Shown here piece by piece: positions 1 to 18,497 of a DNA stretch of 64,000 nt (position 1 is the first letter of the stretch; every line of letters starts with the position of its first letter). A model generated the notes under the pieces. That model did not search any database. It saw nothing but the letters and a program-made list of their open reading frames with translations, and had not been told where the DNA came from. Both the position numbers and the translations under genes were made by a program. The DNA is from a virus: IMG/VR virus record IMGVR_UViG_3300044698_000251, positions 822 to 64,821 of that record; one strand, written 5' to 3'.

Positions 1-279
1 ATCTACGAGCCCGGCGCAGGCCGGATCGTGGAGAAGCCGAAGGATCCGGTGTCGGATCTCGCGGTGACCGGGCTGTACGTGTACGACGACCGGGTCTTCG
101 ACACCATCCGCGGCCTGGTCCCGTCGGCGCGCGGCGAGTTGGAGATCACGGACGTCAACAACTGGTACCTGTCGCACGGCCTGATGGACGTGCACACGGT
201 GCCGGGAGTGTGGTCGGACATGGGGACACCCGACTCCCTGCTCCGGGCCGCACTCCACGCGCAGGCGGCCAACGCGTGA
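1..279 (+). CDS. rmlA: Glucose-1-phosphate thymidylyltransferase / sugar nucleotidyltransferase (5'-truncated by window edge)
   Basis: Frame open from base 1; EKPKDP..LAVTGLYVYD, SARGELEITD and WSDMGT match the C-terminal RmlA/RfbA motifs. Confidence 0.85.
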   Translation: MYEPGAGRIVEKPKDPVSDLAVTGLYVYDDRVFDTIRGLVPSARGELEITDVNNWYLSHGLMDVHTVPGVWSDMGTPDSLLRAALHAQAANA

Positions 280-950
280 ACCTTTACCGCGCGGCCGTCA
301 TCCCCACCCGGGACCGGCACGACATGCTCGACGACTGCATCAACTCCGTCATCGACCAAGTCGACCGGGTCGTCGTCGTCGACAACCTGTCGAACCCGCC
401 GATCGACCCCGAGCCGTGGCACGGCAAGGTCGGCGTGTTGCCGCGGCCGATCGACCCGCCGAACATCAGCGCGTTGTGGAACGCAGGCATCGCTTTGGCG
501 AACTCGATCGCATACGCCAAGCAGGTGGACCGGTGGGACATCGCCGTCCTCAACTCCGACGTCATCGTCCCGCCCGGCTGGATCGAGACGCTGTCCACCG
601 CCATGCGGTCGACCACCGCGGTCCTCGCCTACCCGGACCAGCACGGCGGCCAGCAACGGATCCTCCACACCAAAGCCGAACCGATCGACCTGCGGCAGCG
701 CATCACCGGCTACGCGTTCATGCTCCGCGGCGAGCACGGCCTGCGATTCGACGAAGACCTGGCCTGGTGGTACGGCGACGACTCGGCGGACTGGACCGCC
801 CGCGAACAAGGCGGCGCCCTCCTCGTCCCCGGCATCCCCGTCGAACACCGCGCCCCCAACGTGTCCACCCACGAACGCCCCGAACTGCTGGAACAAACCG
901 GCCGCGACCGCGCCACCTTCCAACAGAAATGGGGCCGCACCCCATGGTGA
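276..950 (+). CDS. Glycosyltransferase, GT-A fold (family 2-like)
   Basis: GTGA overlap with upstream stop; AVIPTRDR..L..C, VVVVDN, VLNSDV, WWYGDD motifs. Confidence 0.8.
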   Translation: MNLYRAAVIPTRDRHDMLDDCINSVIDQVDRVVVVDNLSNPPIDPEPWHGKVGVLPRPIDPPNISALWNAGIALANSIAYAKQVDRWDIAVLNSDVIVPPGWIETLSTAMRSTTAVLAYPDQHGGQQRILHTKAEPIDLRQRITGYAFMLRGEHGLRFDEDLAWWYGDDSADWTAREQGGALLVPGIPVEHRAPNVSTHERPELLEQTGRDRATFQQKWGRTPW

Positions 951-964
951 ACAGGAGTACGAGC

Positions 965-1780
965 ATGCGCATCGCAGTCACTGGCGGGTCCGGCTTCATC
1001 GGCCAAGCCACCATCGCGGCGGCCGAGAACGCCGGCCACACCGCCTGGTCGTTCGACCGCGCGCACGGCAATGACATCCTCGGCAGCCTCGACGCCCTCG
1101 ACGGCGCGGACACGGTCATCCACCTGGCCGGCATGCTCGGCACGTCGGAACTCTTCGACGACGCCGAGGCTGCGGTGGAGGCGAACGTGGTCGGCGCGCT
1201 GCGGATCCTGCGCTGGTGCGAGCGGCACGACGCCTCGTACGTGGGGATCACGATGCCGCCGGTCTTCCCCAGCGTGTACACGGCGACGAAGGTGTGCGCG
1301 GACCGGCTGGCGACGGCCTGGCATGAGGCGTACGGGGTGCCGGTCAGTCACGTGCGGGCGTTCAACGCGTACGGGCCCGGCCAGAAGTGGGGTCCCGGGC
1401 ATCCGCAGAAGATCGTGCCGACGTTCGCGCGCGCTGCGTGGGAGGGCAAGCCGCTGCCGGTGTGGGGTGACGGCGGGCAGACCATGGACCTGGTGCACGC
1501 GGACGACGTCGGCCGGATGCTCGTCGATGCGGCGGCGCACGGTGACGACGTCACCTTCGACGCCGGGACGGGGCAGGCGGTCACGGTGAATGAGCTGGCC
1601 GAGTTCGTGCTGGAGCAGACGGGTTCGACGGCGGGGGTGGAGCATCTGCCGATGCGGACGGGTGAACGCCCGACGCGGATCGTCGCGGCTGGTGACGGCT
1701 GGGAGCGGCTGGACTGGAAGCCTGAGTTCAACTGGTCGCGTGTGGCGCAGGTCGTGGAGTGGTATCGGTCACCGGCATGA
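965..1780 (+). CDS. NAD-dependent epimerase/dehydratase (extended SDR)
   Basis: AGGAG RBS; TGGSGFIG Rossmann motif, HLAG, YTATK (YxxxK), FNAYGP, DLVHADDV. Confidence 0.92.
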   Translation: MRIAVTGGSGFIGQATIAAAENAGHTAWSFDRAHGNDILGSLDALDGADTVIHLAGMLGTSELFDDAEAAVEANVVGALRILRWCERHDASYVGITMPPVFPSVYTATKVCADRLATAWHEAYGVPVSHVRAFNAYGPGQKWGPGHPQKIVPTFARAAWEGKPLPVWGDGGQTMDLVHADDVGRMLVDAAAHGDDVTFDAGTGQAVTVNELAEFVLEQTGSTAGVEHLPMRTGERPTRIVAAGDGWERLDWKPEFNWSRVAQVVEWYRSPA

Positions 1781-2448
1781 GCGATGTAGCGATCCTGACG
1801 GCGATCTATGACGGGTACGACGAGCTGAAGCCGGTCCTGCCGCAGGCTGGCGTCGACGTGGAGTGGGTGTGCGTCACGGACGGCGCGCCACTCCCGGACG
1901 CCGAGGCGGCGCGCGGCTGGTCGATGGTGTGTGATCCGCGTCCGGGGGTGCATCCGAATCGGGCGGCGAAGCATCCGAAGTACGAGCCGTGGAAGTACAC
2001 GGACGCGCCCGTCAGCCTGTGGGTGGATGCGTCGTTCCGGGTGGTGTCGGAGACGTTCGCGGTGGAGGCGACGGCGGGGCTGACGGACGAGGAGCCGATC
2101 GCGCAGTTCGTGCATCCGTGGCGGGACTGTCTGTTCGCGGAGGCCAAGGAGTCCGTAGGGCTGGCGAAGTATGCGGGTGAGCCGACGTTGGAGCAGGCCG
2201 AGTCGTACCGGCAGGCCGGGCATCCGGAGGGCTGGGGGCTGTGGGCGACGGGGGTGATTGCGCGCCGTCACACTGAGGCGGTGCGGCGGATGGGCTGGCT
2301 GTGGCTGGCGGAGACGTACCGGTGGTCGTTTCAGGATCAGATCTCGCAGCCGTTCGCGCTGCGGGAGAAGGGGCTGCGCCCGACGGCGTTCCCCGGGTCG
2401 CATCTGGCCACGCCGTGGCTGGCTTACGAAGGAAGCGGAAGGCACTGA
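1777..2448 (+). CDS. DUF616 (TOD1/MUCI70-like) putative glycosyltransferase
   Basis: TAIYDGYDEL, SLWVDAS (DxS), FVHPWRDCLFAE, QDQISQPF resemble DUF616. Confidence 0.65.
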   Translation: MSDVAILTAIYDGYDELKPVLPQAGVDVEWVCVTDGAPLPDAEAARGWSMVCDPRPGVHPNRAAKHPKYEPWKYTDAPVSLWVDASFRVVSETFAVEATAGLTDEEPIAQFVHPWRDCLFAEAKESVGLAKYAGEPTLEQAESYRQAGHPEGWGLWATGVIARRHTEAVRRMGWLWLAETYRWSFQDQISQPFALREKGLRPTAFPGSHLATPWLAYEGSGRH

Positions 2449-2711
2449 TGAACGAGCAGACACCGAGCGTGGGTAGGATCGTCCACTACGTCTCGCATGG
2501 GACCCCGGTCCGGGAGGACGGCACGCAGGCGTACGCGGCGAAGTGCCGGGCCGCGATCGTCACCGAGGTCGACGGGGTCAAGCCGTTCTGGGTGGGCCTC
2601 GCTGTCCTCAACCCGACGGGCCAGTTCTTCCACTCCCTGGACAGCGGCGGCTGCATGGCCGACTTCACCGAGAACCAGGGCGGCTCCTGGCACTGGCCGG
2701 AGCGTGTGTGA
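2448..2711 (+). CDS. Conserved actinophage hypothetical protein
   Basis: TGATG coupling; PSVGRIVHYV...CRAAIVTEV...GLAVLNPTGQFF...WHWPERV. Confidence 0.7.
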   Translation: MNEQTPSVGRIVHYVSHGTPVREDGTQAYAAKCRAAIVTEVDGVKPFWVGLAVLNPTGQFFHSLDSGGCMADFTENQGGSWHWPERV

Positions 2712-3148
2712 TGGCGAGCATCGAGATCGGCGGCGGCCACCTGGTCCAGCCCGGCTGGATCAACCTGGACCCCCGGCACGGATCCGGCGAGTGGAAGCGG
2801 GAAGCCCAGGACACACCCTGGCCGACCGGAGACCACACCGTGGACGCGATGCGGGCCAGCCACGTCATGGAGCACATCCCCGCCGGTCAGCCGCGCATTG
2901 ACGTGATGAACGAGGCGCACCGCGTCCTCAAGCCCGGCGGCGTGTTCGAGATCCGGGTACCCAACGCGTCGCAGGGCTGGCACGCGTACGCCGACCCCAC
3001 CCACGTCAGCTTCTGGATCATCGAGTCGTTCCACTACTTCGACGGAACGAAGGCCGCGCATGCGGACTACGGCATCCGCCTATGGACCACGCGCGAGCTG
3101 CTGATCCAAGGCGACAACGAGATCCTCTGGAAGGGGACGCCACGGTGA
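2711..3148 (+). CDS. Class I SAM-dependent methyltransferase
   Basis: IEIGGG motif I, WINLD, ASHVMEH, EAHRVLKPGG, DPTH. Confidence 0.85.
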   Translation: MASIEIGGGHLVQPGWINLDPRHGSGEWKREAQDTPWPTGDHTVDAMRASHVMEHIPAGQPRIDVMNEAHRVLKPGGVFEIRVPNASQGWHAYADPTHVSFWIIESFHYFDGTKAAHADYGIRLWTTRELLIQGDNEILWKGTPR

Positions 3149-3381
3149 GCGCTCGTGACGCTCTCGTGTCTGCGCTGTGGGACAACTACACCGCAGCCCA
3201 GAAGAACGCGTTCATCGACGCCTTCGCGCACGAACTCGCGGAGAAGCAGCGGGCGGAGCAGGCGCGGTGCGAGACGGAGCAGCGGAGCAGCTTTGGCCAC
3301 CTGGACCACGAGTGCGAAATGCAGGGCGGAGCTGTGCGTCATATGGCCGACTTCATCGATCCACTGAAGGGCGCGACGTGA
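3145..3381 (+). CDS. Hypothetical protein
   Basis: GTGA overlaps at both ends. Confidence 0.6.
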   Translation: MSARDALVSALWDNYTAAQKNAFIDAFAHELAEKQRAEQARCETEQRSSFGHLDHECEMQGGAVRHMADFIDPLKGAT

Positions 3382-3962
3382 AGCCGGGGGTGACGGTGGT
3401 GACCCCTTTCCACGACCAGCGGCGCACCAACGGCATGCTCGAACGCGCCGCCGCCTCCGTCCGCGCACAGACCGTCCCCGTCGAACACATCCTCGCCGAA
3501 GACATCCACCACATGGGTGCCGCCATCACCCGCGCCCACGGCCTCGCCCTCGTGGAGACGGAGTGGGTTGCGTTCCTCGACAGCGACGACGAGATGGACC
3601 CCGACCACATCGAGCAACTCCTCGCCTGCGCCGAGCAGACGGGCGCTGACTACGTGTACCCGTGGTTCCGGGTGCGCGGCGGCACCGACCCGTTCCCCAT
3701 GTTCTTCGGGAAGCCCTTCGACCCCGCCTGCCCGAACTCCACCACCATCACGATCCTCGTCCGCACCGAGCTGGCCAAGACGGTCGGGTTCGTCCGCGAC
3801 CCGGCGACACAGGCAAGCGGCGAAGACTTCCTGTTCACCAAGGGCTGCATCGCCACCGGGGCGAAGATCGTGCACCTGCCGCGCCGGAGCTGGACCTGGC
3901 ATCACCATGGCGGGGGCAACACCAGCGGCCTCCCCACCCGAGGCGACGCCCGCCGCCGCTGA
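3378..3962 (+). CDS. Glycosyltransferase family 2
   Basis: VTVVTPF, ASVRAQT, GAAITRAHG, VAFLDSDD (DxD), GEDFLF. Confidence 0.88.
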   Translation: MKPGVTVVTPFHDQRRTNGMLERAAASVRAQTVPVEHILAEDIHHMGAAITRAHGLALVETEWVAFLDSDDEMDPDHIEQLLACAEQTGADYVYPWFRVRGGTDPFPMFFGKPFDPACPNSTTITILVRTELAKTVGFVRDPATQASGEDFLFTKGCIATGAKIVHLPRRSWTWHHHGGGNTSGLPTRGDARRR

Positions 3963-3965
3963 CTT

Positions 3966-3998
3966 CCGGAACCCGCCAGCCGCAACACGCCCGACAAT
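3966..3998 (+). promoter_or_regulatory. Late-promoter-like motif (variant), probably leaderless for terL
   Basis: CCGGAACCCGC-N16-GACAAT-N6-ATG(4005). Confidence 0.55.
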
Positions 3999-4004
3999 CC
4001 GGCC

Positions 4005-5399
4005 ATGACCACCGAGGACAGGGCCCACGTCGCACAGCGCGCAGCCGCCGCGCTCGACGCCCTCCTCGCACCACGCTGGACACCGTTGCCCCACCAGATC
4101 CCACCACCAGGCAACTGGGGAGGCTGGGTACTTTTGGGAGGCCGAGGCAGCGGCAAGACGGACGCCTGCGCCGCCTACATCGACGCCCACATCAACGGCC
4201 CACCCTGCATCCCCGGCCCCGTCCCACACTGGATCGGCATCATCGCCCCCACCCTCGGCGACGCCGCCACCTCCTGCTACGCCGGCCCATCCGGGATCCG
4301 CGCACACAGCCCCGGCGCGAAACTCGTCAACGGCCCCGGCGGCCTCACCGTCCGCTGGCCCAACGGCTCCGAAGCGAAACTCTTCGGCGCCCACAGCCCC
4401 GAAGACGTCGAACGCCTCCGCTCCGGCGGTAACCGATGCGCCGTCTGGGGAGAGGAACTGGCAGCGTGGCGGCATCTAGACGACGCATGGGACCACATGC
4501 GCTTCGGCCTGCGGACCGGGCCGCGCCCGCACTGGATCGCGTCCACCACACCGAAGCCGAAGCCGCTCATCAAGCGCCTGGCGGCCGGTGAGGAGCGCAA
4601 CGTCGTGCTGACCACGGCCACGACGTACGACAACCCGCACCTTGAACAGCACATCCGCGACCAGCTGGAGGAGACGTACGGCGGCACGCAGCTCGGCCAG
4701 CAGGAGCTTCTCGGCCTCATCATGGACCAGGACGAGAACGCCCTCTGGACTCGGGCAATGCTCGACGCTTCCCGGGTGCGGCCGGCGGACGTGCCCGACT
4801 TGGCGCGGATCGCGGTCGGCGTCGACCCGTCCGGTGGTGCCGGCGAGCAGGGCATCGTTGTGGTGGGTAAGTCGGGGCTCATCACGCCGCTGCGCCTGGT
4901 GTCGGACGACGGTACGGTGCCGGGCCCGGTGCGGCCGGAGCATCACGGGTATGTCCTCGATGACCGGACGTGCAAGCTTCCGCCGGATGGCTGGGGGCGG
5001 CGGGCGGTGCAGGCGGCGATCGACTGGGGCGCCGATGAAATCGTGTGTGAGGTCAACTTCGGAGGGGCCATGGCCGTGGCCACGATTCGTACGGCGGCCG
5101 ATGCGTTGGGCGTGAACATCCCCATCCGTACCGTCACCGCTACCCGGGGCAAGGCGGTGCGTGCGCAGCCGGTTGCCGCACTCACCGCGCAGGGGCGTTG
5201 GCATATGGCCGGCGTGTTCCCCGAGTTGGAGGAGCAGCTCGTCACTTGGTATCCGGAGATCGGCTGGTCACCGGATCGACTCGACGGGATGGTATGGCCG
5301 GCGTGGCACTTGAAGTTGGTGCGTACGACGGCGGGTGGTCTGGGTTCGTTGGGTGGGGATCTGGCCAGAAAGCAGATTGTTGGCGGGCGGCTACGGTGA
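4005..5399 (+). CDS. terL: Terminase large subunit
   Basis: GGRGSGKT Walker A, WGEELAAW Walker B, TTTPKP coupling motif, VGVDP nuclease, DRLDGMVW. Confidence 0.95.
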   Translation: MTTEDRAHVAQRAAAALDALLAPRWTPLPHQIPPPGNWGGWVLLGGRGSGKTDACAAYIDAHINGPPCIPGPVPHWIGIIAPTLGDAATSCYAGPSGIRAHSPGAKLVNGPGGLTVRWPNGSEAKLFGAHSPEDVERLRSGGNRCAVWGEELAAWRHLDDAWDHMRFGLRTGPRPHWIASTTPKPKPLIKRLAAGEERNVVLTTATTYDNPHLEQHIRDQLEETYGGTQLGQQELLGLIMDQDENALWTRAMLDASRVRPADVPDLARIAVGVDPSGGAGEQGIVVVGKSGLITPLRLVSDDGTVPGPVRPEHHGYVLDDRTCKLPPDGWGRRAVQAAIDWGADEIVCEVNFGGAMAVATIRTAADALGVNIPIRTVTATRGKAVRAQPVAALTAQGRWHMAGVFPELEEQLVTWYPEIGWSPDRLDGMVWPAWHLKLVRTTAGGLGSLGGDLARKQIVGGRLR

Positions 5400-5845
5400 C
5401 GGGCATGAATCCGTGGTTGTTCCTGGTCCTGCTGCCCGCGATGGCGTTGACGACATACCGGTTGACCCGGTTGGTCGTGGCTGACACCTTCCCTCCGGCG
5501 TTGTGGCTGCGGGACCGTCTCGTCGGCGGCTGGCGTCCCCTCACCTCGAAGGAGTCGGAGAGTCACCCGCTTCCGGTCATGGAGGAGGGGCAGTCGGCCA
5601 CCGTGGCACGGCTCGGCGGTTTGACGGTGATCGACGGTCAGATGAACCGGTATGTGGAGCGGGCTCGTTGGGTGCCGCACTGGTTGGCGGATCTGTTGTC
5701 GTGCCCGTTCTGCGCTTCGGGGTGGATCGGTGCGGGGGTGGTAGCGGGTGCGTGGTTTGCCCCTGCTGGCGCGTCGGTGCCGGTGCTGTGCTGGTTCTCG
5801 GCGTGGGCGATCGGCGGACTGATCGCGGCGCAGGACTGGGCGTAA
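5396..5845 (+). CDS. DUF1360-like membrane protein
   Basis: YRLTRLVVAD, LLSCPFCASGW, hydrophobic ends; alternative ATG at 5405. Confidence 0.7.
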   Translation: MTGMNPWLFLVLLPAMALTTYRLTRLVVADTFPPALWLRDRLVGGWRPLTSKESESHPLPVMEEGQSATVARLGGLTVIDGQMNRYVERARWVPHWLADLLSCPFCASGWIGAGVVAGAWFAPAGASVPVLCWFSAWAIGGLIAAQDWA

Positions 5846-5921
5846 GTGGGCGCGTAGCATCGTGGGTGCAGGAGAGCGGGCCCGGTCGCTTTCTCGGAGA
5901 CCGGGCTCGGTGGATGGGTGG

Positions 5922-5960
5922 CTGAGGGCCGTTCGCGGTGGGCATCGCGGGCGGCCCTCA
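5922..5960 (+). terminator. GC-rich hairpin between DUF1360 gene and portal promoter
   Basis: TGAGGGCCG(5922-5930)...CGGCCCTCA(5952-5960); no U tract. Confidence 0.4.
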
Positions 5961-5967
5961 CTCATGC

Positions 5968-6000
5968 CCGGAATGATCTTCACTGTGCCGCTCCTACCCT
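5968..6000 (+). promoter_or_regulatory. Late-promoter-like motif upstream of portal
   Basis: CCGGAATGATC-N16-TACCCT, then GGGAG RBS and ATG 6034. Confidence 0.7.
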
Positions 6001-6033: not shown

Positions 6034-7806
6034 ATGGCCTGGTGGCATGCATTCAGTCGACGCGGCACCCCCACGCCCAAACCGCACACGCCCACACAAC
6101 CCAACGCACTCACCTCCGCCGCAGCCCCCGTCACCAGCCCCCGCACCGAACTCATCCGCAACACCGACGGCTGGCAAGAAGAAGCCTGGGGCTACCACGA
6201 GACGCTGGGCGAATTCCGGTACGCCGTCGACTGGGAAGCGAAGATGCTCTCCCGCGTCCGACTCTTCGCCGCCAAACTCGAACCCGGCGCCGACGAACCC
6301 GTACGCGCCGACGCCGGAACCGCCGTCGACCTCCTCACCAACATGGCCGGAGGCGTCGCCGGACAAGCCGTCATCATGGACGGCCTCGGCACCCAGCTGT
6401 CCGTACCCGGCGAGGGCTACGTCATCGTCGAAAACGTGAACGGCGTGGAGCGGTGGTCGGTGCGCTCCATCGACGAAGTCCGCGTCGCACGCGGCCGGTA
6501 CGAGGTGACCGACGAGAACGCCGTCAACGGCGCCAACATCTGGCGCCCCCTCGCACCCGACTCACTGAATCCGCTGCGCGTGTGGCGCCCGAACAAGCGC
6601 TACCACCACATCGCCGACAGCCCGGCCCGCGCGGCCCGCTCCACCATGCGCGAGCTGGAGCTCGTGAACCGGCACATCATCGCCCAGTACCTGTCGCGGC
6701 TCGCGTCGGCCGGGGTGGTGCTCTTCCCCGAGGAGATCACGTTCCCCGTTCGCGAGGAGTTCGCGGACGCCCCTGACCCGTTCATGGCCGAGTGGATCGA
6801 GATCGCATCCGAAGCCATCCGGACACCCGGTACAGCGGCAGGGATTGTCCCGCTCCCGATGAAGCTCCCGGGCGAGTGGATCGACAAGGTGAAGCACGTC
6901 GACTTCACCCTGAAGATCGACGAGAAGATCATCGAGAAGCGCGAGTCCGCCATCAAACGGCTCGCCTCCCAGCTGAACATCCCCGCCGAAATCCTCCTCG
7001 GCATGGGCGACGTTAATCATTGGGGGGCATGGCAACTGGAGGAGGGCGCCCTCAAAACCAACATCGCCCCCGAAGCCGAGCTGATCGCGCAGGCGCTTAC
7101 CACCGGCTACCTCCAGCCCCGGCTCCGGGCGTCCGGCGTCGAGGACTGGGCGAGCTGGGTCGTCTGGTACGACATGTCGGAACTCACCCTCCGCCCCGAC
7201 CGCTCCGACGACGCCATCGCCCTCTACGACCGGCTCGAACTCAACGGCACCGCACTGCGCCGCGAGACCGGCTTCGACGAGGCCGACAAGCCGACCAACG
7301 AGGAACTCAAGGAACAAGCCCTCAAGGTCATCATCCACACGCTGCCGTCCGGCGCCGGATCCGCCCTCACCGAACTCATCGGCGAACAGGTCACCATCGC
7401 CGCGACCGCGCCCATCGCCCCGGGCAAACAACCGGCGCCGGAGCCCCCACCGGAAGAGCGCACGCCACCCGATCCCGAAGCCGCCCGCGCAGTGACGGCA
7501 CAGGCCCGCGAAGACCGCATGGTCCGACAGTCCCGCGAACTACACGCCGTCAGGTTCACGGTCGGCCGGGCGCCGGATCTGCTGCACCCGGCCGGCTGTA
7601 CGCAGCACGCCTACAGCTGCCCGTTCACGCATGCCGTGGTGAAGCTCGACGCGCTGCCGCGCCCGGGGACGTCCGGGACGTACGAGGTGCGGCTCGACAC
7701 ATTCGGCCGTCTGGCGATCGGCCGGCTTGCCCCGCATCTGGATACGAGCGGGTTCCTGTCCACCTCTCCTCGGAGTTCCAATGGGTTCGCTCACAGCCGC
7801 GGCTGA
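6034..7806 (+). CDS. Portal protein
   Basis: Position after terminase; WQEEAWGY..GEFRY, VPGEGY, LGMGDVNHWGAWQ typical of actinophage portals. Confidence 0.85.
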   Translation: MAWWHAFSRRGTPTPKPHTPTQPNALTSAAAPVTSPRTELIRNTDGWQEEAWGYHETLGEFRYAVDWEAKMLSRVRLFAAKLEPGADEPVRADAGTAVDLLTNMAGGVAGQAVIMDGLGTQLSVPGEGYVIVENVNGVERWSVRSIDEVRVARGRYEVTDENAVNGANIWRPLAPDSLNPLRVWRPNKRYHHIADSPARAARSTMRELELVNRHIIAQYLSRLASAGVVLFPEEITFPVREEFADAPDPFMAEWIEIASEAIRTPGTAAGIVPLPMKLPGEWIDKVKHVDFTLKIDEKIIEKRESAIKRLASQLNIPAEILLGMGDVNHWGAWQLEEGALKTNIAPEAELIAQALTTGYLQPRLRASGVEDWASWVVWYDMSELTLRPDRSDDAIALYDRLELNGTALRRETGFDEADKPTNEELKEQALKVIIHTLPSGAGSALTELIGEQVTIAATAPIAPGKQPAPEPPPEERTPPDPEAARAVTAQAREDRMVRQSRELHAVRFTVGRAPDLLHPAGCTQHAYSCPFTHAVVKLDALPRPGTSGTYEVRLDTFGRLAIGRLAPHLDTSGFLSTSPRSSNGFAHSRG

Positions 7807-10800
7807 TGGCTCGCACATGTCTGGCGCGATGATCGCGTTGATGCCGACCGTGGAGGATGCGGCCCGGTTGGCGATCGAGGGCGGCGAGGCCGCGGATCAG
7901 CTGCACCTGACGCTGCGGTACCTCGGTGACGGCGCCAACTTCGACGAGGCCGCGCGTACCGCGATCGTCGACTCGGTGCGGATGCTGACGGAGGGCATGC
8001 CGCCGATCGTGTCGAAGATCTTCGGTGCGGCGCACTGGAACGGGGGCGGTGACGAGCCGTCGTGGGTGTGGTCCGTCGGCGACGATCCGGAGCGCGGCCC
8101 GTCGCTGGAGGCGGCGCACGGTATGGCGGAGGAGGCGCTACTGATGGCGCCCATGGATGTGGAAATTCCGGAGCCGCACACGCCGTTTGCCGCGCATATC
8201 TGTGCCGCGTACTCCGACGAGCTGGACCTCATCATCCCCATGGAGGAGCGGCTCGGCCCGGTCACTTTCGACCGAGTTCGGGTGGCGTTCGCCGGGGACC
8301 ACACCGACACCCCCCTTGGTGGGCCCGTCACGGCCGCAGCCGGGCCGCTGCGCCGTCGGCCCACCGAGTTGGAGCTCGCCTCCCGCGTCGACTTCGCGCA
8401 GATGGACAAGGCGTGGCATGAGGCCGTTGACGGCACGGTGGAGGCGTGGGCCAGCGTGCAGGAGGCGATGCGCGCCGAGGTCACCGCCAGCATCCAAGCC
8501 GCAGCTGAGGCCGACGACCTGGACCGGCTCGACGGCCTCGCCGTGGACACCGAGGACGGTTCCCGGCTCCTGATCGCCCGCATGATCGCCTACGCGCGGG
8601 AGGCAGGCGACGCACAGCAAGCTGAGGCCGAAGCCCAGGGCGTCACCGTCCCGGAGTGGTCGCTGGACGACGAGGCGCTCACTGCGGCTGCGATCCGTGA
8701 CCGGCTGCGGCAGGTCGGCCGTACTGTCGCGCGTGGCCTCGGGGTGGGACTGGTGCAGTCCGCGGTCCGGCAGGCGATGCGCGTGTGGGGCTCCGGTACG
8801 GCGCAGCAGGTGGCCGCGCAGGTGGATGAGCACCTTGCCGGGCTGTCGGGTGCGGCAGCTGAGGAGCAGGTCGGTGGGGCGATGAGCGTCGCGCAGAACG
8901 AGGGGCGCCTCGCGGTGCTCGCGGTCGCGCCGCCCGCCACGTACACAGCTTCGGAAATCTTGGACAAATCATCATGTAAGCCATGTCGTGACATCGACGG
9001 CACCGAGTACGACACCCTCACCGCGGCCCGCACCGCATACCCGTCCGGCGGCTACACGGGCTGCCTCGGCGGCTCGCGCTGCCGGGGCGCGTTGGTCACC
9101 GTGTGGCCGCAGGGCAGTGAGCAAGCCGCCGCCGGAATGATCTTGGCTGCGAGTGCGTCCACAATGCCGCCGACAAACCACGAAGGAGGCGGCGCCGTGC
9201 CGTACCGCATCGAGCAGGAGCACCCGGACTGCGGTGCCGACAAGCCGTACGCCGTGGTGAAAGAAGCCGACGGCGAGCTGATGGGCTGCCACGACAGCGA
9301 GGCCGCAGCCATGGAGCAGCAGGCCGCCCTGTACGCCGAGGAAGGCGACGACAAGCCCGCAGACGACGGCGACGACATGGACTATGCGGGCAAGACCGCC
9401 CCCTGGCGCGGTCCCCTCGCCATCGAAGGGCAAGTCACCGGCGACGGCCGCGAGTTCGCCCCCGACGCGCTCACCTGGGCCGAACTTCCCGTGCCGCTGC
9501 GATGGAACAAGGAAGACTCCCACGGCGGCGACCCGAAGACCGTAGCCGTCAACGTCGGCCGCATCGACAGCATCTGGCGCGACGGCAGCCTCATCATGGG
9601 CGAAGGCGTCCTCGACCTCTCCGACGACGACGGACGCAAGGTCCACGGCAAGATCCTCGGCAAGTTCCTCCGCGGCGTCAGCATCGACGCCGACTCCATC
9701 GCCGACGCCGACGTCGAATTCGTGTGGCCCGAAGACGCCAACGAGGGCACCGGAGACGGCGACGAGGGCGACCTGCTGGAGATGCTCTTCGCGCAGCCGG
9801 AGAAGATGATTTTCCACGGCGGACGCATCCGGGCCGCAACTCTCGTCGACATCCCCGCGTTCGCCGAGGCGTACATCGCACTCCTTGATGAGCAGGGGGC
9901 GGTGGTGGCCGGCGGCCAGCCGATCGGCGCCGAAGCGCTCCAGGCGCTGGCAGTGCAGGATCTGGGTGCGGTCGGCACCCACGACACGGCCACCTCCGAC
10001 GGGCCGTGGGACGTGGGCGTGAACGAGAAGCGCATCGACGGGCCGCTCACGCTGGCCAAGGCGCGGGCCGCATACGGCTGGTACGACGGCGGCGCGGTCG
10101 AGGACGGCGAACTGGCGAAGTCCGCGGCGAAGTTCCTCCACCACGAGATCAACGCCGACGGCACCGTGGGCCCGGCGAACTTGACCGCCTGCTCCTCTTC
10201 GATCGGTGCCTTGCACGGCGCCCGTGGTGGTACGTCCATTCCGGAGGCGGACCGGCGTGGCGTGTACGACCACGTTGCGGCGCATCTGCGGGACGCCGGG
10301 CGTGAGCCGGAGCCGTTCCGTTCCCTGCGTGCTGTCACCGCTGGCGCACCGGCCTCGCATCCGGCGATGACCGGCCTGTGGAAGCCGCCCGCCGAGTGGT
10401 TCAGTAACCCGGAGCTGCCGTTCTACTGCGGGATCGTTGTCACCGACCAGGGGCGCCTGTACGGGCATGCGGCACCGTGGGGGGCCTGCCACATCGGGTT
10501 CGACGGCGAGTGCGTCACTGTCCCGCGGGAGAACGAGCACTCGCACTACATGACCGGTGAGACGGTCTGTGACGACGGCTCGCGGGTGGCGGTCGGCCAG
10601 GTCACTGTCGGAACAGGGCATGCTCCGCTGCATTTTGGGGCGCAGCCTGCGGCGGAGCACTACGACAACACGGGCAGTGCGGTCGCTGATGTGGCGGTCG
10701 GCAACGACAAGCACGGCATCTGGATCGCGGGTGCGATCCGGCCGAACGCGGATCCGCTGAGCGTGTACGAGCTGCGGGCGTCGGGGCGGGTGTCGGGTGA

Positions 10801-11032
10801 CTGGCGGCGGATCGGCGGCCAGTTGCGGATGGTGGGGATGCTCGGCGTGAATGTGGCTGGGTTCCTGGAGGAGGCGAAGATGCGGACGCTGGTTTCTGCC
10901 GGGCGCCCGCAGGCGCTTGTGGCGGCTGGTGTTCCGAAGCAGCGGTGGGCGATGTCGAAGGACGAGTCGGAGCGTCAGGCGATGCGGATCGTGATGCGCA
11001 TGCTGTCCCGCCGCGTACACCCGGGGAGGTGA
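7781..11032 (+). CDS. 2H-phosphoesterase + MuF-like head morphogenesis + capsid maturation protease fusion (1083 aa)
   Basis: GGAG RBS; HLTLRYLG and FAAHICAAY (2H motifs); DKSSCKPC..CLGGSRCRG (MuF-like); EGQVTGDGREF, VSIDAD, ATLVDIPAF, SGDWRRIGG (protease region). Confidence 0.8.
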   Translation: MGSLTAAADGSHMSGAMIALMPTVEDAARLAIEGGEAADQLHLTLRYLGDGANFDEAARTAIVDSVRMLTEGMPPIVSKIFGAAHWNGGGDEPSWVWSVGDDPERGPSLEAAHGMAEEALLMAPMDVEIPEPHTPFAAHICAAYSDELDLIIPMEERLGPVTFDRVRVAFAGDHTDTPLGGPVTAAAGPLRRRPTELELASRVDFAQMDKAWHEAVDGTVEAWASVQEAMRAEVTASIQAAAEADDLDRLDGLAVDTEDGSRLLIARMIAYAREAGDAQQAEAEAQGVTVPEWSLDDEALTAAAIRDRLRQVGRTVARGLGVGLVQSAVRQAMRVWGSGTAQQVAAQVDEHLAGLSGAAAEEQVGGAMSVAQNEGRLAVLAVAPPATYTASEILDKSSCKPCRDIDGTEYDTLTAARTAYPSGGYTGCLGGSRCRGALVTVWPQGSEQAAAGMILAASASTMPPTNHEGGGAVPYRIEQEHPDCGADKPYAVVKEADGELMGCHDSEAAAMEQQAALYAEEGDDKPADDGDDMDYAGKTAPWRGPLAIEGQVTGDGREFAPDALTWAELPVPLRWNKEDSHGGDPKTVAVNVGRIDSIWRDGSLIMGEGVLDLSDDDGRKVHGKILGKFLRGVSIDADSIADADVEFVWPEDANEGTGDGDEGDLLEMLFAQPEKMIFHGGRIRAATLVDIPAFAEAYIALLDEQGAVVAGGQPIGAEALQALAVQDLGAVGTHDTATSDGPWDVGVNEKRIDGPLTLAKARAAYGWYDGGAVEDGELAKSAAKFLHHEINADGTVGPANLTACSSSIGALHGARGGTSIPEADRRGVYDHVAAHLRDAGREPEPFRSLRAVTAGAPASHPAMTGLWKPPAEWFSNPELPFYCGIVVTDQGRLYGHAAPWGACHIGFDGECVTVPRENEHSHYMTGETVCDDGSRVAVGQVTVGTGHAPLHFGAQPAAEHYDNTGSAVADVAVGNDKHGIWIAGAIRPNADPLSVYELRASGRVSGDWRRIGGQLRMVGMLGVNVAGFLEEAKMRTLVSAGRPQALVAAGVPKQRWAMSKDESERQAMRIVMRMLSRRVHPGR
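9132..9165 (+). promoter_or_regulatory. Intragenic late-promoter-like motif
   Basis: CCGGAATGATC-N17-CACAAT, then AAGGAGG RBS and in-frame GTG at 9197. Confidence 0.6.
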
Positions 11033-11224: not shown

Positions 11225-12976
11225 GTGCCCGAGGAACTCTTCAGCGCCCCGTCCGACCTCACCCTCGTCAGCGACAGCGACCTCGCCGAACTCGAAACAC
11301 GCGGCGCAGCAGAGTTCGCCCGCATCGAACAGAACGACGTCGACCCCCAGTCCCTCGCCTACGCGACGACTCTCGCCGACGACCTCGACGCCATCCGCGC
11401 CGAACTCAAGGTCCGCGAAGTCCGCGCCCAGGCGAACTCCGACCTCCAGCGCACCCGCGTCGGCGAGAAGCTCGCCGCACTCAGGGAACGCGTCAACGGC
11501 ACCGACGGCCAGGGTGCGGCCAGCACCCAGACCGCAGCCCCCGTCGACACAGACGCCATCGCCGCCGCCGCCGCACAGGGCGTCGCCGCCGAGTTCGTCA
11601 AGATCTTCACCAGCGGGCGAGGCGGCAACGGCCTCGGCGCCGTCGCCAAGCGCGCCACCGCCTCCCTCGCCGAGACCGCGCAGCACGCGCCCGCGCCGAA
11701 GGTCCCCAACGCCAAGCTCGCCGTCACCGCCTCCGTGGACATCCCCGGCGTCGCCCACGGCGGGGAACTCCCCACCCTGCGCGCCCTCGCCGACGTCGTG
11801 TCCCGCAAGGCGAAGTCCATGCCGGTCACGCAGAACAACCCCAACCACCAGCTCGTCGCCAGCATTCGCAACGACTTCGGGCACACCATCGACGACCGCA
11901 CCAGCCCGGCGCAGGTCCGCGACCTCATCGACTTCCTCACCGGCCCCGACAAGCAGCAGGCGCTGGTGGCCGGCGGCGGATGGTGCGCCCCCTCCGAGAT
12001 CCGCTACGACTTCTTCAACATCGCCTGCGAAGACGGCATGATCGACCTCCCCACGTTCGGCGTGAGCAGGGGCGGCATCCAGTTCCCCGTCTCCCCGAGC
12101 CTCGCCGACGCCCTCGGCGGCGGCACCGCCTTCGCCGAATTCGCCGCCACCCTCTCCAACACCTCAACGCCGTTCCTGTGGACCGAAGCCGACGACATCG
12201 CCGCCGCCACCGGCTCCCCGACGAAGCCGTGCATCCGCGTGCCCTGCCCGGACTTCGACGAAGAGCGCCTGGAGTGCTACGGCTACTGCCTCACCGCGGG
12301 CAACTTGACCGACGACGCCTACCCCGAGGCCACGCAGCACATGCTGCAACTCCTCATGTCGGCGCACTCGCACGTCATCAACGCCCGCCTCATCGCGCTG
12401 ATGCTGCTTGGCTCCAGCGCCACCACCACCATCGGCGGCCAGACCGACGACTCCGCCGCACCCCGCATCTACAACGCGGTCGGCATGGCGGCCACCGACT
12501 ACCGCGCCAGGTTCGGTATGTGCATCGACGACGTCCTCGAAGTCGTCCTGCCGTACTGGGTCCGCGAAGTCATCCGCGCCGACCTCGCATGGAAGGCGGG
12601 CGTCGAACTGCCTGCCGTCTCCAACGCGGAGGTCGACTCGTACTTCGTGGCCCGCAACGTGCGCGTCCAGTGGGTCAACGACTGGCAGGTCCGCGGAGCG
12701 AGCCAGTTCGGCAACGCCACCCCCATGACCGCATGGCCGACCACCGTGGACTTCCTCATCTACGCGGCCGGCACGTTCATCCACGGCAACGGCCTCTCTC
12801 TCGACCTCGGCGTGATCCGCGACTCGGTTCTCAACGAGACCAACGACCACACCGCCGCCTGGTCCGAGGAATGCCACCTTGTCGCCCGCGTCGGCCACGA
12901 GTCCCGCCGCTACACCGTGCCGTTCAACGTCAAGGGCAGCACCGGCGCGATCCTCGGCGACGAAGCCCGCGTCTGA
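11225..12976 (+). CDS. Major capsid protein (hexamer-type, with N-terminal scaffold-like region)
   Basis: Coiled-coil N-terminus; ALVAGGGWCAPSE.RYDF, PTFGVSRGGI, LDLGVIRDSVLN.TND motifs of actinophage capsids. Confidence 0.9.
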   Translation: MPEELFSAPSDLTLVSDSDLAELETRGAAEFARIEQNDVDPQSLAYATTLADDLDAIRAELKVREVRAQANSDLQRTRVGEKLAALRERVNGTDGQGAASTQTAAPVDTDAIAAAAAQGVAAEFVKIFTSGRGGNGLGAVAKRATASLAETAQHAPAPKVPNAKLAVTASVDIPGVAHGGELPTLRALADVVSRKAKSMPVTQNNPNHQLVASIRNDFGHTIDDRTSPAQVRDLIDFLTGPDKQQALVAGGGWCAPSEIRYDFFNIACEDGMIDLPTFGVSRGGIQFPVSPSLADALGGGTAFAEFAATLSNTSTPFLWTEADDIAAATGSPTKPCIRVPCPDFDEERLECYGYCLTAGNLTDDAYPEATQHMLQLLMSAHSHVINARLIALMLLGSSATTTIGGQTDDSAAPRIYNAVGMAATDYRARFGMCIDDVLEVVLPYWVREVIRADLAWKAGVELPAVSNAEVDSYFVARNVRVQWVNDWQVRGASQFGNATPMTAWPTTVDFLIYAAGTFIHGNGLSLDLGVIRDSVLNETNDHTAAWSEECHLVARVGHESRRYTVPFNVKGSTGAILGDEARV

Positions 12977-13912: not shown

Positions 13913-14590
13913 ATGGCTGCTACTTCTACGTGCGCAACCCCCATCAAGGGCACGCACCTGCGGATCATCGCTCTTGACGCCTGCGGCGTACCGGTCACCG
14001 GCGATTCTGGGCTGGTCGCCGTAACGTCCGGGTTCGTACAGGTCGAGATGGAACCCGACTACGAGGACGGTGAGGAGTTCTTCGAGCGCACCGCCAGCGG
14101 CGCGGCATGCGTGAACCAGAAAGACGACCCCACCCTCAAGCGCATGGGCCTGACCGTGCAGATGTGTGAGGTCAACGTCTCCGCGATCTCCTACATCATC
14201 AGCGCACGCGAACTGACGACCGGTACGCCGACGACAGGCACCGGCTTCGCGGTCGCCGAGGGCAACCCGACGAACCGGTTCAGCATGGAGGTGTGGCAGG
14301 AGGTCGCCGGGTCCGGGGCGTGCGACGCGTCGGGGAATCAGCGGTACATCTACCACGCGTGGCCGAACGTGGGTGCCACCCAGATCGGCTCGTACACCAT
14401 CGAGAACGGCCGCTCCACGTTCGAGTTCACCTCGGAAACCCGCGGCGCTTCGGCAACGTGGGACACGCTCGTCGGCGAGGACTTCCTCCCGGCCGGGGAG
14501 AGCGTCGACATCGACGAGCATTGGGTGTGGAACGTGACCACGGCCACGCCGCCCACAGTGGCGTGTGACCCGACCACGCTCGCCGCATAA
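13913..14590 (+). CDS. Major tail (tube) protein
   Basis: IKGTHLRIIALDACG, GEEFFERTASGAAC, TIENG..TF; position in the morphogenesis operon. Confidence 0.75.
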   Translation: MAATSTCATPIKGTHLRIIALDACGVPVTGDSGLVAVTSGFVQVEMEPDYEDGEEFFERTASGAACVNQKDDPTLKRMGLTVQMCEVNVSAISYIISARELTTGTPTTGTGFAVAEGNPTNRFSMEVWQEVAGSGACDASGNQRYIYHAWPNVGATQIGSYTIENGRSTFEFTSETRGASATWDTLVGEDFLPAGESVDIDEHWVWNVTTATPPTVACDPTTLAA

Positions 14591-14608: not shown

Positions 14609-16246
14609 ATGGCGCTCGCCCAGTACACGGACACGTTCTGGTTCCCCACGGGTGCCATCGCCGCGAACATTGCGGCAAGGGTGTTCCCGAAGGCCTCCAG
14701 TGCCCTGGCCACCCTGTGGGCGGACGCGGCCGGAACCATCCCGCTGGCCAACCCGACCACCACCAGCGGGGCCGGAGTGCTGTCGTTCTGGGCGGAGTCC
14801 GGCGAGTACTGGGTCCACCTGGACTCTGAAACCTTCGGCGTCACGGTCGGCATGTCACAGGAGCAGGCCGACCTGTCCACCGGGATTGCGTCCGGCGGAG
14901 AGATCAACGCCAGCGCAGTGCCGTCCTCCGTGGACGTCACCGCAGTGGACGGCTACATCGTCAACTACCTCGCCGGTACTCAGGCCGAGCCGGTCATCAC
15001 CCGCGTGAAGACTGCCGCGCAGACTGTCGCTTTGGATGCTGCGGCGTTGCTGCGGACGACGACGTGGTGGCTGCTGGACTCCACCGGGGCTGTGATCCAG
15101 CAAGCGGCCAAGCCCGATGCGGTGCAGCGGCGCACGCACATCATGCTGGGCGTGACTGCGCAGGTCGGCGGAGTCGTCGTCGTTGACCAGTCTCTCCCTG
15201 TGATCCTCGCCGGGCAGGCGAACCAGGTAGTCGACCTGATGGAGTCGCTGGGCCCGTTCAACATCTCCGGGAACCTGATCTCAGCCAACGGCGCCAACCT
15301 GACGATCAACCACAGTTCCGGGACCGTGTTCAGCCGGGCCTTCGGCTATTTCATCTCCGGCGTCCTGACCAACAGCCCACACATCGTCACCACGCAGGCG
15401 CAGACTCCGGCCGACTTCATCTATGTCACCCAGACCACCATTGTCGCCGGAGCTTTGACCAACCTCGTTGACGTGGCCAGCTACGACAATAGCGGCGTGA
15501 TCACTGCGATCGGTGGCGGCGCAAACCGGTCCAGCGTGCACCGCGTCTACCTATTCCCCAACAACGATCCGCAGCGTCAGCTGATCATTCAGTACGGGCA
15601 AGCGCCGTATACCAGCCTCGACGAAGCTGTCGCCAACGTGAACGTCGAAGCATTCACCGAAAACCCGTCCTTCATCCAGGGCGGCGGCATCCTGATCGCG
15701 TTCATCGCAGCCACCCGGACAGCGACCGACCTATCCGATCCGGACCAGGCGAAAATCCTGGGGGCTGCGAGGTTCGGCGCGGGCGCGGTCGGGCAAGAGG
15801 CGCTGGCCGGGTTCGCCATGCTGTCGGGCGCCGCGTTCACGGGCGCGGTATCAGTCAACGACGCAGACCTTTCGGTCCTCGACACCGGAGTGAAGGGATA
15901 CCGGTTCCGCCAGGGTGGATCCGCCCTGGACCTGGAGGCGTCGGGCGCTGACCTCCTGTTGTCGAACTGGTCCGGCACCGCCTTCAACGGCACGCAGTAC
16001 TCGCACAGCCGGTATTCCTCCGGGGCCCTGGCACAGCAGCAGGCCGGGCTGGTGGAGTTCGTCGACGCCCTGTACGGCACGGTCCGACACACCCTCAACG
16101 GGGTCGCCAACACGGCCGGGTTCTTTGGAGTGGCGCCAGTCTCCCGTCCGGTCGTGACCGGTTCGCGGGGCGGCAATGCGGCGCTCGCGTCGCTGCTTAC
16201 CGGCCTTGACTCGCTCGGCCTGGTCGACGACCAGACCACCGCCTAG
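14609..16246 (+). CDS. Putative virion fibre/decoration protein
   Basis: Thr/Ala/Gly-rich beta-strand composition; C-terminal GFFG..PV.RP.VTGSRGGNAALASLLTGLDSLGL fibre-like end. Confidence 0.5.
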   Translation: MALAQYTDTFWFPTGAIAANIAARVFPKASSALATLWADAAGTIPLANPTTTSGAGVLSFWAESGEYWVHLDSETFGVTVGMSQEQADLSTGIASGGEINASAVPSSVDVTAVDGYIVNYLAGTQAEPVITRVKTAAQTVALDAAALLRTTTWWLLDSTGAVIQQAAKPDAVQRRTHIMLGVTAQVGGVVVVDQSLPVILAGQANQVVDLMESLGPFNISGNLISANGANLTINHSSGTVFSRAFGYFISGVLTNSPHIVTTQAQTPADFIYVTQTTIVAGALTNLVDVASYDNSGVITAIGGGANRSSVHRVYLFPNNDPQRQLIIQYGQAPYTSLDEAVANVNVEAFTENPSFIQGGGILIAFIAATRTATDLSDPDQAKILGAARFGAGAVGQEALAGFAMLSGAAFTGAVSVNDADLSVLDTGVKGYRFRQGGSALDLEASGADLLLSNWSGTAFNGTQYSHSRYSSGALAQQQAGLVEFVDALYGTVRHTLNGVANTAGFFGVAPVSRPVVTGSRGGNAALASLLTGLDSLGLVDDQTTA

Positions 16247-18047: not shown

Positions 18048-18497
18048 ATGACCGACATCGCCGCCACCCCAACACCCATCATGGACTTCACCGAGGAACA
18101 CCAGCGCGTCCTCTTCCGCATCGACGACGACGTCTTCGAAGCCGCACGCGCCCTCCCCGGGAAAACCCTCGCCCGCTTCGCATCCCGCTTCGCCAACGTG
18201 GAGAAAGCCGGCCACGAGGAGCAGATCAACGCGATTGGCGACGCCCTCGGCCTAGTCCTCCTGCCCGACTCCAACGCCCGCTTCCAGAAACGGCTGGAAG
18301 ACCTCGAAAACCCCATCGGCCTGGAGCAGGCCGGACGCATCATCGAGTGGCTTATGGAGCAGTACGGCCACCGCCCTACCGAGCCGTCCTCGGACTCGTC
18401 CACTGGGCCAGCCAGCCCGGTATCTGGCACGAGCTCGACGGACGCGCAGCCGCAGCCGGTATCGATCCCGGCGACCTTCCAGCCGACCGCTTCCTGA
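18048..18497 (+). CDS. Tail assembly chaperone
   Basis: Immediately upstream of tape measure; ends ..YGHRPTEPSS.. Confidence 0.75.
   Translation: MTDIAATPTPIMDFTEEHQRVLFRIDDDVFEAARALPGKTLARFASRFANVEKAGHEEQINAIGDALGLVLLPDSNARFQKRLEDLENPIGLEQAGRIIEWLMEQYGHRPTEPSSDSSTGPASPVSGTSSTDAQPQPVSIPATFQPTAS

Follow-up and report, generated by a model that had tools for sequence, protein, structure and literature searches.

A putative sugar-nucleotide, glycosyltransferase and methyltransferase cassette directly upstream of terL in a lineage of temperate Streptomyces phages

The gene cassette upstream of terL

The DNA analysed here is a 64,000-nucleotide stretch (the window; genome positions 822-64821) of a 70,945-bp viral contig with 69% GC, IMG/VR record IMGVR_UViG_3300044698_000251. 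The contig is 79% complete according to CheckV, and both record ends fall inside genes. At the left end of the window, directly before the gene encoding the terminase large subunit (terL), lies an operon that is predicted from sequence and structure models to encode an RmlA-type nucleotidyltransferase, a minimal short-chain dehydrogenase/reductase (SDR), three small soluble glycosyltransferases (GTs) of the GT-A fold and an S-adenosylmethionine (SAM)-dependent methyltransferase. Two of the transferases belong to glycosyltransferase family 2 (GT2a and GT2b) and the third is of the DUF616 type. We consider it somewhat probable that this cassette serves late glycosylation of the virion with a glycan containing a methylated 6-deoxyhexose.

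The features of the locus are collected in Table 1. For each gene, a single plus-strand frame was favoured by third-position GC, and all Pfam matches of the cassette and terL proteins exceeded the gathering score. A preliminary description, made from the letters of this DNA, had recognized an RmlA-like protein, two GT2 enzymes, an SDR, a DUF616-like glycosyltransferase and a methyltransferase. All of these calls stand after Pfam, structure and family searches, and two small open reading frames absent from its list, h87 and h78, were added. Its statement that nearly all of the genes are linked by overlapping stop and start codons is borne out at six of the seven junctions (GTGA, ATGA or TGATG; 1 or 4 bases); at the GT2a/SDR junction an overlap exists only if the SDR starts at 944 or 947. 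This junction is probably a 14-nt gap, because the ATG at 965 has an AGGAG Shine-Dalgarno sequence upstream and agrees with the start position in relatives. The cluster had also been expected to continue past the left edge of the window; the first 141 codons of rmlA do lie there, and what is found further upstream is a promoter-like box and an unrelated conserved gene.

Table 1. Coordinates of the cassette, its borders, the terL box and the two candidate acceptor regions (window positions unless stated otherwise; aa, amino acids).
Feature	Position	Strand	Match or motif	Remark
rmlA-like gene, 3' third	1-279	+	NTP_transferase, 61.7 bits	full gene at genome 438-1100, 220 aa
GT2a	276-950	+	Glycos_transf_2 (PF00535), 32.6 bits	minimal GT2 (GT-A), 224 aa
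Short extended SDR	965-1780 (alternative starts 944/947)	+	Epimerase, 115.6 bits	271 aa (278 aa from ATG 944)
DUF616/TOD1-MUCI70-type GT-A glycosyltransferase	1777-2448	+	TOD1_MUCI70 (PF04765), 27.6 bits (cut-off 21.4)	223 aa
h87, small open reading frame	2448-2711	+	phrog_2293, 1.3e-22	87 aa
SAM methyltransferase, compact class I	2711-3148	+	Methyltransf_23 and Methyltransf_11	145 aa
h78, small open reading frame	3145-3381	+	no family match	78 aa
GT2b	3378-3962	+	Glycos_transf_2 (PF00535), 46.4 bits; phrog_14775, 3.9e-44	194 aa
Promoter-like box	3966-4007	+	CCGGAACC	terL ATG at +39
terL, terminase large subunit	4005-5399	+	Terminase_6N, 54.5 bits	downstream border of the cassette
DUF1360 membrane protein gene	5396-5845	+		overlaps the terL stop
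Portal gene	6034-7806			
Candidate acceptor 2: major capsid protein, last ~15 residues	12926-12976 (gene 11225-12976)	+	phrog_777	
Candidate acceptor 1: major tail protein, C-terminal tail	14519-14590 (gene 13913-14590)	+	phrog_792; HWVWNVTTATPPTVACDPTTLAA	

The cassette genes appear to be translationally coupled behind a phage-specific promoter-like box. The copy at the cassette head, CCGGAATG, begins at genome 398 (398-440, outside the window) and places the rmlA ATG at exactly +40. Besides the copy before terL, the same box with the same spacing was found ahead of the genes starting at 18048, 25592 and 29901, and leadered copies precede the portal gene and the start at 9197. The box was located immediately behind the gene for a zinc-ribbon-like protein, the upstream neighbour of the cassette, in 15 of 20 relatives, and in at least 12 of these 15 the start codon at +40 is that of the first cassette gene, whichever gene comes first; the terL box was also present in seven relatives. 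A box that stands at the cassette head and is shared with virion genes marks the cassette as its own transcription unit under a virion-gene signal, and from this distribution we infer a late promoter.

Hydrophobic segments are absent from every cassette protein (the highest Kyte-Doolittle mean over 19 residues is 1.3), and all of the enzymes are soluble. Family scans of the cassette proteins detected no flippase, polymerase, lipid-carrier transferase or other membrane-spanning glycosylation component.

Predicted enzymes and their conservation

The best 21 Protein Data Bank (PDB) matches of the RmlA-like protein were all glucose-1-phosphate thymidylyltransferases (top match 3hl3, 269 aa, 1.2e-51), and the GGxGTRL motif is retained. 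The protein is a short form without the C-terminal ~70 aa of the 290-aa RmlA, which accounts for its score of 171.5 bits against TIGR01207 (rmlA), below the equivalog cut-off of 360.65. We regard it as a probable RmlA-type glucose-1-phosphate thymidylyltransferase, with the nucleotide specificity as a candidate assignment.

The short SDR matched Pal best in the PDB (6bwl, 1e-26). It carries a deletion of ~15 aa before the YxxxK motif, where extended SDRs have the strand with the catalytic Ser/Thr. Alignment of 22 homologues showed that TGGxGFxG, F-D38, N81, S110, Y112 and K116 are invariant, and that the canonical catalytic Ser/Thr position is occupied by T, S or G. Rankings in the PDB and NCBIfam did not discriminate between an epimerase, a reductase and a dehydratase, the matches being mixed (Pal, 4,6-dehydratases, 4-epimerases and fucose synthase). 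A role as a 4,6-dehydratase is unlikely because the Thr-Asp-Glu segment is deleted. The protein is a candidate reductase or epimerase of nucleoside diphosphate (NDP)-4-keto-6-deoxyhexoses; judged by its score of only 18 bits against TIGR01214 (rmlD), a reductase of this kind would not be a member of the RmlD family.

For the DUF616 protein, the AlphaFold2 (AF2) model (pLDDT 93.9) has a GT-A fold. Foldseek against the PDB placed GT6 retaining GT-A enzymes and the WrtF fucosyltransferase on top (E about 1e-6), and the BFVD list was headed by DUF616 members from a Cellulophaga phage and giant viruses (TM 0.81-0.84). The modelled fold thus backs the family call, and the gene product is predicted to be a GT-A glycosyltransferase.

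GT2b (AF2 model, pLDDT 88.1) contains a DxD motif, and D42 and L-D-S-D-D are invariant. Ranking by VIA-align placed TarP first (Z 20.7), followed by TarS (20.2), RmlT (19.9) and SpsA (19.5). GT2b superposed on TarP, TarS and RmlT with a root-mean-square deviation of 2.0-2.8 A over 167-179 aligned residues, covering residues 1-208 of TarP (312-residue chain), 1-216 of TarS and 18-231 of RmlT. It is a bare GT-A catalytic core with no C-terminal acceptor-binding or oligomerisation domain, and it is the cassette component found most widely across the phage lineage.

The methyltransferase has 14 longer homologues, of which 11 are fused to a PF00535 GT2 domain; the closest of the 14 (60% identical) is fused to PF13712, another GT2-type domain, bringing the GT2-type fusions to 12 of 14. 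The repeated fusion of this family to GT2 domains supports sugar O-methylation, which the preliminary description had raised as a possibility, and makes the protein a candidate sugar O-methyltransferase; Che8 gp108, in which GT2 is joined to TylF, is built in a similar way. The two small reading frames seem less involved. h87 is missing from many cassettes, occurs in relatives without a cassette beside terL and has DNA similarity to gene 4 of mycobacteriophage CrimD and to a hypothetical gene of ~186-kb Streptomyces phages; it is probably an optional passenger outside the pathway. h78 gave no match in Pfam, PHROG or NCBIfam; its homologues were found only in loci L008, L095-97 and L112, and it is likewise an optional reading frame.

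Searches with terL and the DUF616 protein yielded ~80 related IMG/VR contigs and Streptomyces genome loci (62 IMG/VR relatives with terL alone). The DUF616 protein had 630 homologues, many of them 70-95% identical and located on 10-Mb Streptomyces chromosomes (S. scabiei, S. caniscabiei, S. canus and others). These prophage copies indicate that phages of this type are temperate and widespread in Streptomyces. The core order GT2a, SDR, DUF616, methyltransferase, GT2b was constant in about 28 loci of phages and prophages; GT2a was found in nearly all related cassettes and the short SDR in almost every one. The full order was zinc-ribbon gene, (rmlB-like), (rmlA), GT2a, SDR, DUF616, (h87), methyltransferase, (h78), GT2b, (second GT2b) and terL, with the optional genes in parentheses. 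In G022 and G028 the core cassette is located away from terL. More distant relatives carry two GT2b paralogues and a different SDR instead, and GT2b-like genes were present in 16 of 16 GT-bearing stretches taken from them. GT2 genes were also present in all 14 relatives that are at least 90% complete, as would be expected of a core virion trait rather than of a moron acquired sporadically.

Where present, the optional rmlB-like and rmlA genes always stood at the cassette head, and most loci had one or both. Both were found in four loci (L003, L100, L105 and L111), rmlB-like alone in about 15, rmlA alone in this phage, L102 and L116, and neither in seven (L006, L007, L104, L107, L109, L110 and L114). 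The rmlB-like protein of the relatives aligned over the full length with DesIV and RmlB (4e-46) and retains the motifs TDEVYG and YxxxK (YAASK). Since both optional genes belong to the route to deoxythymidine diphosphate (dTDP)-6-deoxyhexoses and the SDR is nearly constant, the simplest reading is that the SDR acts on dTDP-4-keto-6-deoxyglucose and that the phage would top up whichever upstream step of sugar supply is limiting. This comparison supports the earlier proposal that the phage makes its own activated deoxysugar, as an rmlB-like gene heads most related loci. The present record does so only in part: beyond RmlA and the short SDR, which is the sole PF01370 gene, no 4,6-dehydratase (RmlB) was found in it, and no RmlC match (PF00908) was found in it or in four relatives. 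The slot that holds the rmlB-like gene in relatives is present in this contig and is empty. With neither enzyme encoded here, no deoxysugar would be made by the phage alone, and host RmlB would be needed.

The slot taken by the cassette also gathers selfish or unrelated passengers in the S. scabiei prophages L095-L097 (locus positions 8550-9008, 10291-10860 and 11813-12667): the SDR and DUF616 genes are separated by an Endonuclease VII gene, GT2b is preceded by a gene for an Rv2179c-like exoribonuclease, and an HNH_3 gene in the reverse orientation stands ahead of terL. L097 lacks GT2a and encodes a truncated SDR of 197 aa.

Upstream, the cassette is always bordered by a conserved gene for a ~180-aa protein (genome 1-384, outside the window), inside which the contig begins; full-length homologues are encoded at L102:5731-6288 and L003:1296-1835. 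The protein belongs to phrog_3678 and has a zinc-ribbon-like N-terminal Cys/His motif (CP.RN.NGR.C ... G.C.WH). It may be a small terminase, and an attempt to identify it as such failed, with no Pfam match above noise; for this reason we do not describe the cassette as lying between terS and terL. On the other side, nearly all of the 62 relatives found with terL have the DUF1360 gene at this same place, after terL and before the portal gene. In several relatives (L044, L045, L046, L049, L059, L062 and L063) the terL match is split or limited to residues 143-462, and at L044:8001-9959 it extends over 1.96 kb, which suggests an intein or an inserted element in those terminase genes.

Candidate acceptors and alternative functions

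Virion proteins are suggested as the target of the cassette by the promoter-like box, the position, the lineage-wide conservation and two candidate acceptor tails, and not by homology to proven mycobacteriophage enzymes. The solubility of the enzymes, with no lipid-carrier, flippase or Gtr-type component beside them, and the precedent of Che8 and Corndog also favour this target. The first candidate is the C-terminal tail of the major tail (tail-tube) protein. The pattern HW.WN[VI]TT..PP...C.P.TL was present in 27 of 27 relatives, and H203, W204, T209, P213 and P214 were invariant in an alignment of 21 sequences. Most of the relatives compared, L066-L092, have an Asn-[Val/Ile]-Thr sequon here (WNVTT/WNITT), of which the Asn is not invariant; Thr209 and Pro213-Pro214 are. 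No difference in this tail was seen between relatives with a DUF616-type cassette and those with other GT sets, so that co-variation does not point to an acceptor. When GT2b and tail-tube residues 140-225 were modelled as a complex, the score was 0.00, which is no verdict and carries no weight either way. The second candidate is the C-terminal tail of the major capsid protein, which was variable and rich in Gly, Ser, Thr and Ala among 20 relatives compared. Its last conserved strand and tail (VPFNVKGSTG...) loosely resemble the C-terminus of Che8 gp6 (VVFNKTGS; L156:5051-5872), which may be chance. Either tail could serve as an acceptor.

Under the proposed mechanism, RmlA would raise the dTDP-glucose pool, and a 4,6-dehydratase (host RmlB here, a phage RmlB-like enzyme in most relatives) would convert dTDP-glucose to dTDP-4-keto-6-deoxyglucose, which the short SDR would reduce, possibly with epimerisation, to a dTDP-6-deoxyhexose. 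GT2a, the DUF616-type enzyme and GT2b would then assemble a short glycan stepwise, with GT2b, as the most widespread component in the lineage, the likeliest to initiate, and the methyltransferase would O-methylate one sugar. The acceptors would be newly made virion proteins in the cytoplasm, the best candidates being the tail-tube protein, at its Thr/Pro-rich C-terminal tail, and the capsid protein, at its flexible C-terminal end. The particle would thereby acquire a coat of glycan similar to that of mycobacteriophages Che8 and Corndog and, by analogy, of chloroviruses.

Several points weigh against virion glycosylation. The glycan and its target are both predictions, and the box is called a putative late promoter from where it stands. 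At the sequence level, hardly any similarity connects the cassette with the proven enzymes of mycobacteriophages: tblastn with GT2a, GT2b and the DUF616 protein (1e-5) gave no mycobacteriophage match, and in pairwise BLASTP only GT2b against the N-terminus of Che8 gp108 scored (29% over 69 aa, E 1.5e-5). The Che8 glycan is reportedly located at the C-terminus of the capsid and tail-tube subunits. The Che8 proteins end in Gly-Ser (capsid gp6 in ...NKTGS, gp11 in ...YSDGS), whereas such termini are absent from the capsid (...GDEARV) and tail-tube (...PTTLAA) proteins of this phage. The short SDR is without the usual catalytic Ser/Thr segment, and the record is without a 4,6-dehydratase. The closest solved folds to GT2b are wall-teichoic-acid glycosyltransferases, including the prophage-encoded TarP and the dTDP-rhamnose-using RmlT. 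Finally, the phage is temperate, so that lysogenic conversion is possible.

The last two points lead to the strongest rival, in which the operon would decorate a host wall glycopolymer (teichoic acid, teichulosonic acid or another) on the cytoplasmic face, much as the prophage-encoded TarP acts in S. aureus, and alter the receptor of this or other phages, as in lysogenic conversion or superinfection exclusion. This phage type is widespread as a Streptomyces prophage, the structural neighbours of GT2b include RmlT, a dTDP-rhamnose wall-teichoic-acid transferase of Listeria, as well as TarP and TarS, and the tail module contains a candidate glycan-acting domain. The 545-aa protein encoded at 14609-16246, after the major tail protein, matches a tail-fibre PHROG family, and its first 88 residues match phrog_24355 (polysaccharide deacetylase; 1.2e-22); candidate glycan-acting domains in the tail module make wall glycans a probable receptor. 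We nevertheless hold the rival to be unlikely. GT2b comprises only the 194-aa catalytic core and is without the C-terminal oligomerisation and acceptor domains, and the cassette contains no GtrA/GtrB-like, flippase-like or other membrane-component-like protein. The operon shares its box and spacing with virion genes and lies between packaging genes, not in a moron position, and the GT2 genes are universal rather than sporadic in the near-complete relatives.

Alternatively, the operon could act late in infection on a different acceptor (a phage or host protein outside the virion, or a small molecule), for instance to inactivate a host factor or defence signal. Compatible with this are minimal transferases that have no recognisable acceptor domain, the missing physical link from the enzymes to capsid or tail proteins, and a slot that is a cargo hot spot taking homing endonucleases and other passengers. 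The probable late co-regulation with virion genes, the retention of the GT2 genes throughout the lineage and the precedent of Che8 and Corndog, whose operons have the same composition, argue for virion proteins instead, and we give this alternative a small chance.

In the weakest rival, the transferases would attach sugar to a modified base of the phage DNA shortly before it is packaged. Some DNA-sugar pathways do come with nucleotide-sugar genes, and dCMP/dUMP hydroxymethylases are members of the Thymidylat_synt family, but no match to Thymidylat_synt (PF00303) or to C5 DNA methylase (PF00145) was found in this record. PF00303 was also unmatched in five relatives (G001, G003, G005, G006 and G016), two of them complete; searches for Tet_JBP (PF12851) gave no match either, which is weak evidence because the control genomes were also unmatched. 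The position directly upstream of terL and the classic role of phage glycosyltransferases in DNA glucosylation (PMC9614988) speak for DNA hypermodification, but three different GT-A transferases with a small-molecule-type methyltransferase suit a multi-sugar glycan better than a single-sugar base, and on this gene content DNA modification is very unlikely.

Virion glycosylation is thus the function we favour for the cassette, and a more specific form of it may be put forward tentatively, as possible but doubtful in all its details. These phages would form a lineage of temperate Streptomyces phages with semi-autonomous glycosylation, placing a methylated 6-deoxyhexose-containing glycan on an acceptor of a new kind, the invariant Thr-Thr-x-Pro-Pro tail of the tail-tube protein, and possibly on the capsid tail. 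The enzymes would be unrelated to those of Che8: protein O-glycosylation would be initiated by a minimal GT2 of 194 aa, working with a DUF616 transferase and with a truncated SDR whose active site is arranged in a new way, and the rmlA and rmlB-like genes would be swapped according to host supply. If the cassette does glycosylate the virion, this modification would count among the core traits of a large group of Streptomyces phages and prophages, across the lineage, and unrelated enzymes would have given rise to it; DUF616 proteins of bacteria and viruses and the minimal SDR would gain a biochemical role, and the compact soluble enzymes could be of use in protein glyco-engineering. The presence of the prophages in culturable Streptomyces strains, together with a cultured-phage genus, Zukovirus, that shares two of the transferases, makes the question directly testable.

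Comparison with known glycosylation systems

To our knowledge, glycosylated phage particles have been established experimentally for a few mycobacteriophages only. Virion O-glycosylation in Che8 (gp108-110) and Corndog (gp35-38), reported by Freeman et al. 2023 (Cell Host Microbe), is described in PMC11256854 and PMC10877033. Corndog gp35-38 lie inside the structural operon, between portal and protease (PMC4351075), and the order at the right end of the Che8 genome is genes 108-110, gene 111, an HNH gene, cos, terS and terL; the two arrangements provide a precedent for a position beside packaging genes. The preliminary description had characterized known modules as a few transferases, in agreement with both gene sets. 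The present cassette resembles them in gene content, as an operon of about three small soluble GT-A glycosyltransferases with a predicted O-methyltransferase activity beside packaging or structural genes, and Che8 gp108 is a fold-level match to GT2b in BFVD (rank 12, E 1e-9). The enzymes differ. Che8 has a GT2-TylF fusion (gp108), a weak GT2 (gp109) and a GT25 (gp110), whereas the present set comprises two minimal GT2s, a transferase of the DUF616 type and a methyltransferase of the Methyltransf_11 type. The Che8 module is also without nucleotide-sugar genes, which this cassette has in rmlA and the short SDR (and, in relatives, an rmlB-like gene). The operon logic is that of Che8 and Corndog, but with different enzyme families, sugar-nucleotide genes and a DUF616 transferase.

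Among cultured phages, megablast with window positions 1-6000 gave no match, and distant blastn matched terminases and the GT genes of Zukovirus (Streptomyces phages KimJongPhill and Zuko). KimJongPhill gp109 and gp107 are 60% identical to GT2a and GT2b, respectively, and flank a methyltransferase gene in what is a putative module. This module differs in having no rmlA, SDR or DUF616 gene and in lying near the right genome end, not directly before terL, and its methyltransferase and that of the cassette gave no tblastn match to each other. Directly upstream of it, KimJongPhill gene 110 (L065:3990-4634) encodes a 2-oxoglutarate (2OG)-Fe(II) oxygenase (PF13640, 2.2e-16), a family that includes prolyl 4-hydroxylases. 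Such an oxygenase beside transferases hints at protein hydroxylation followed by glycosylation in Zukovirus; no prolyl-hydroxylase-like 2OG oxygenase was found in this record or in 18 relatives.

TarP is a prophage-encoded wall-teichoic-acid glycosyltransferase of S. aureus. With TarS and RmlT, it provides the best solved-structure match to the catalytic domain of GT2b, and the likeness extends to TarP being phage-borne and RmlT using dTDP-rhamnose. GT2b is distinguished from all three by the absence of their C-terminal domains and by an operon context and box that are those of virion genes, probably late ones.

The closest functional analogy may be the autonomous glycosylation of giant viruses (PMC9614988), in which PBCV-1 A064R combines two rhamnosyltransferase domains with a methyltransferase, Mimivirus R141 and L780 provide UDP-rhamnose synthesis, and ATCV-1 encodes the dehydratase only (PMC9614988). 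Those are eukaryotic viruses with N-linked glycans and UDP- rather than dTDP-sugars, and the comparison is one of analogy, not of demonstrated homology. Both sets of viruses have genes for part of a route to 6-deoxyhexose nucleotide sugars, for transferases and, as predicted here, for sugar O-methylation; the subsets vary among relatives, with the host supplying the rest, and DUF616/TOD1 proteins occur in giant viruses too. If the proposed function is correct, a phage that brings its own sugar-nucleotide supply would be the bacterial-virus counterpart of this autonomous glycosylation.

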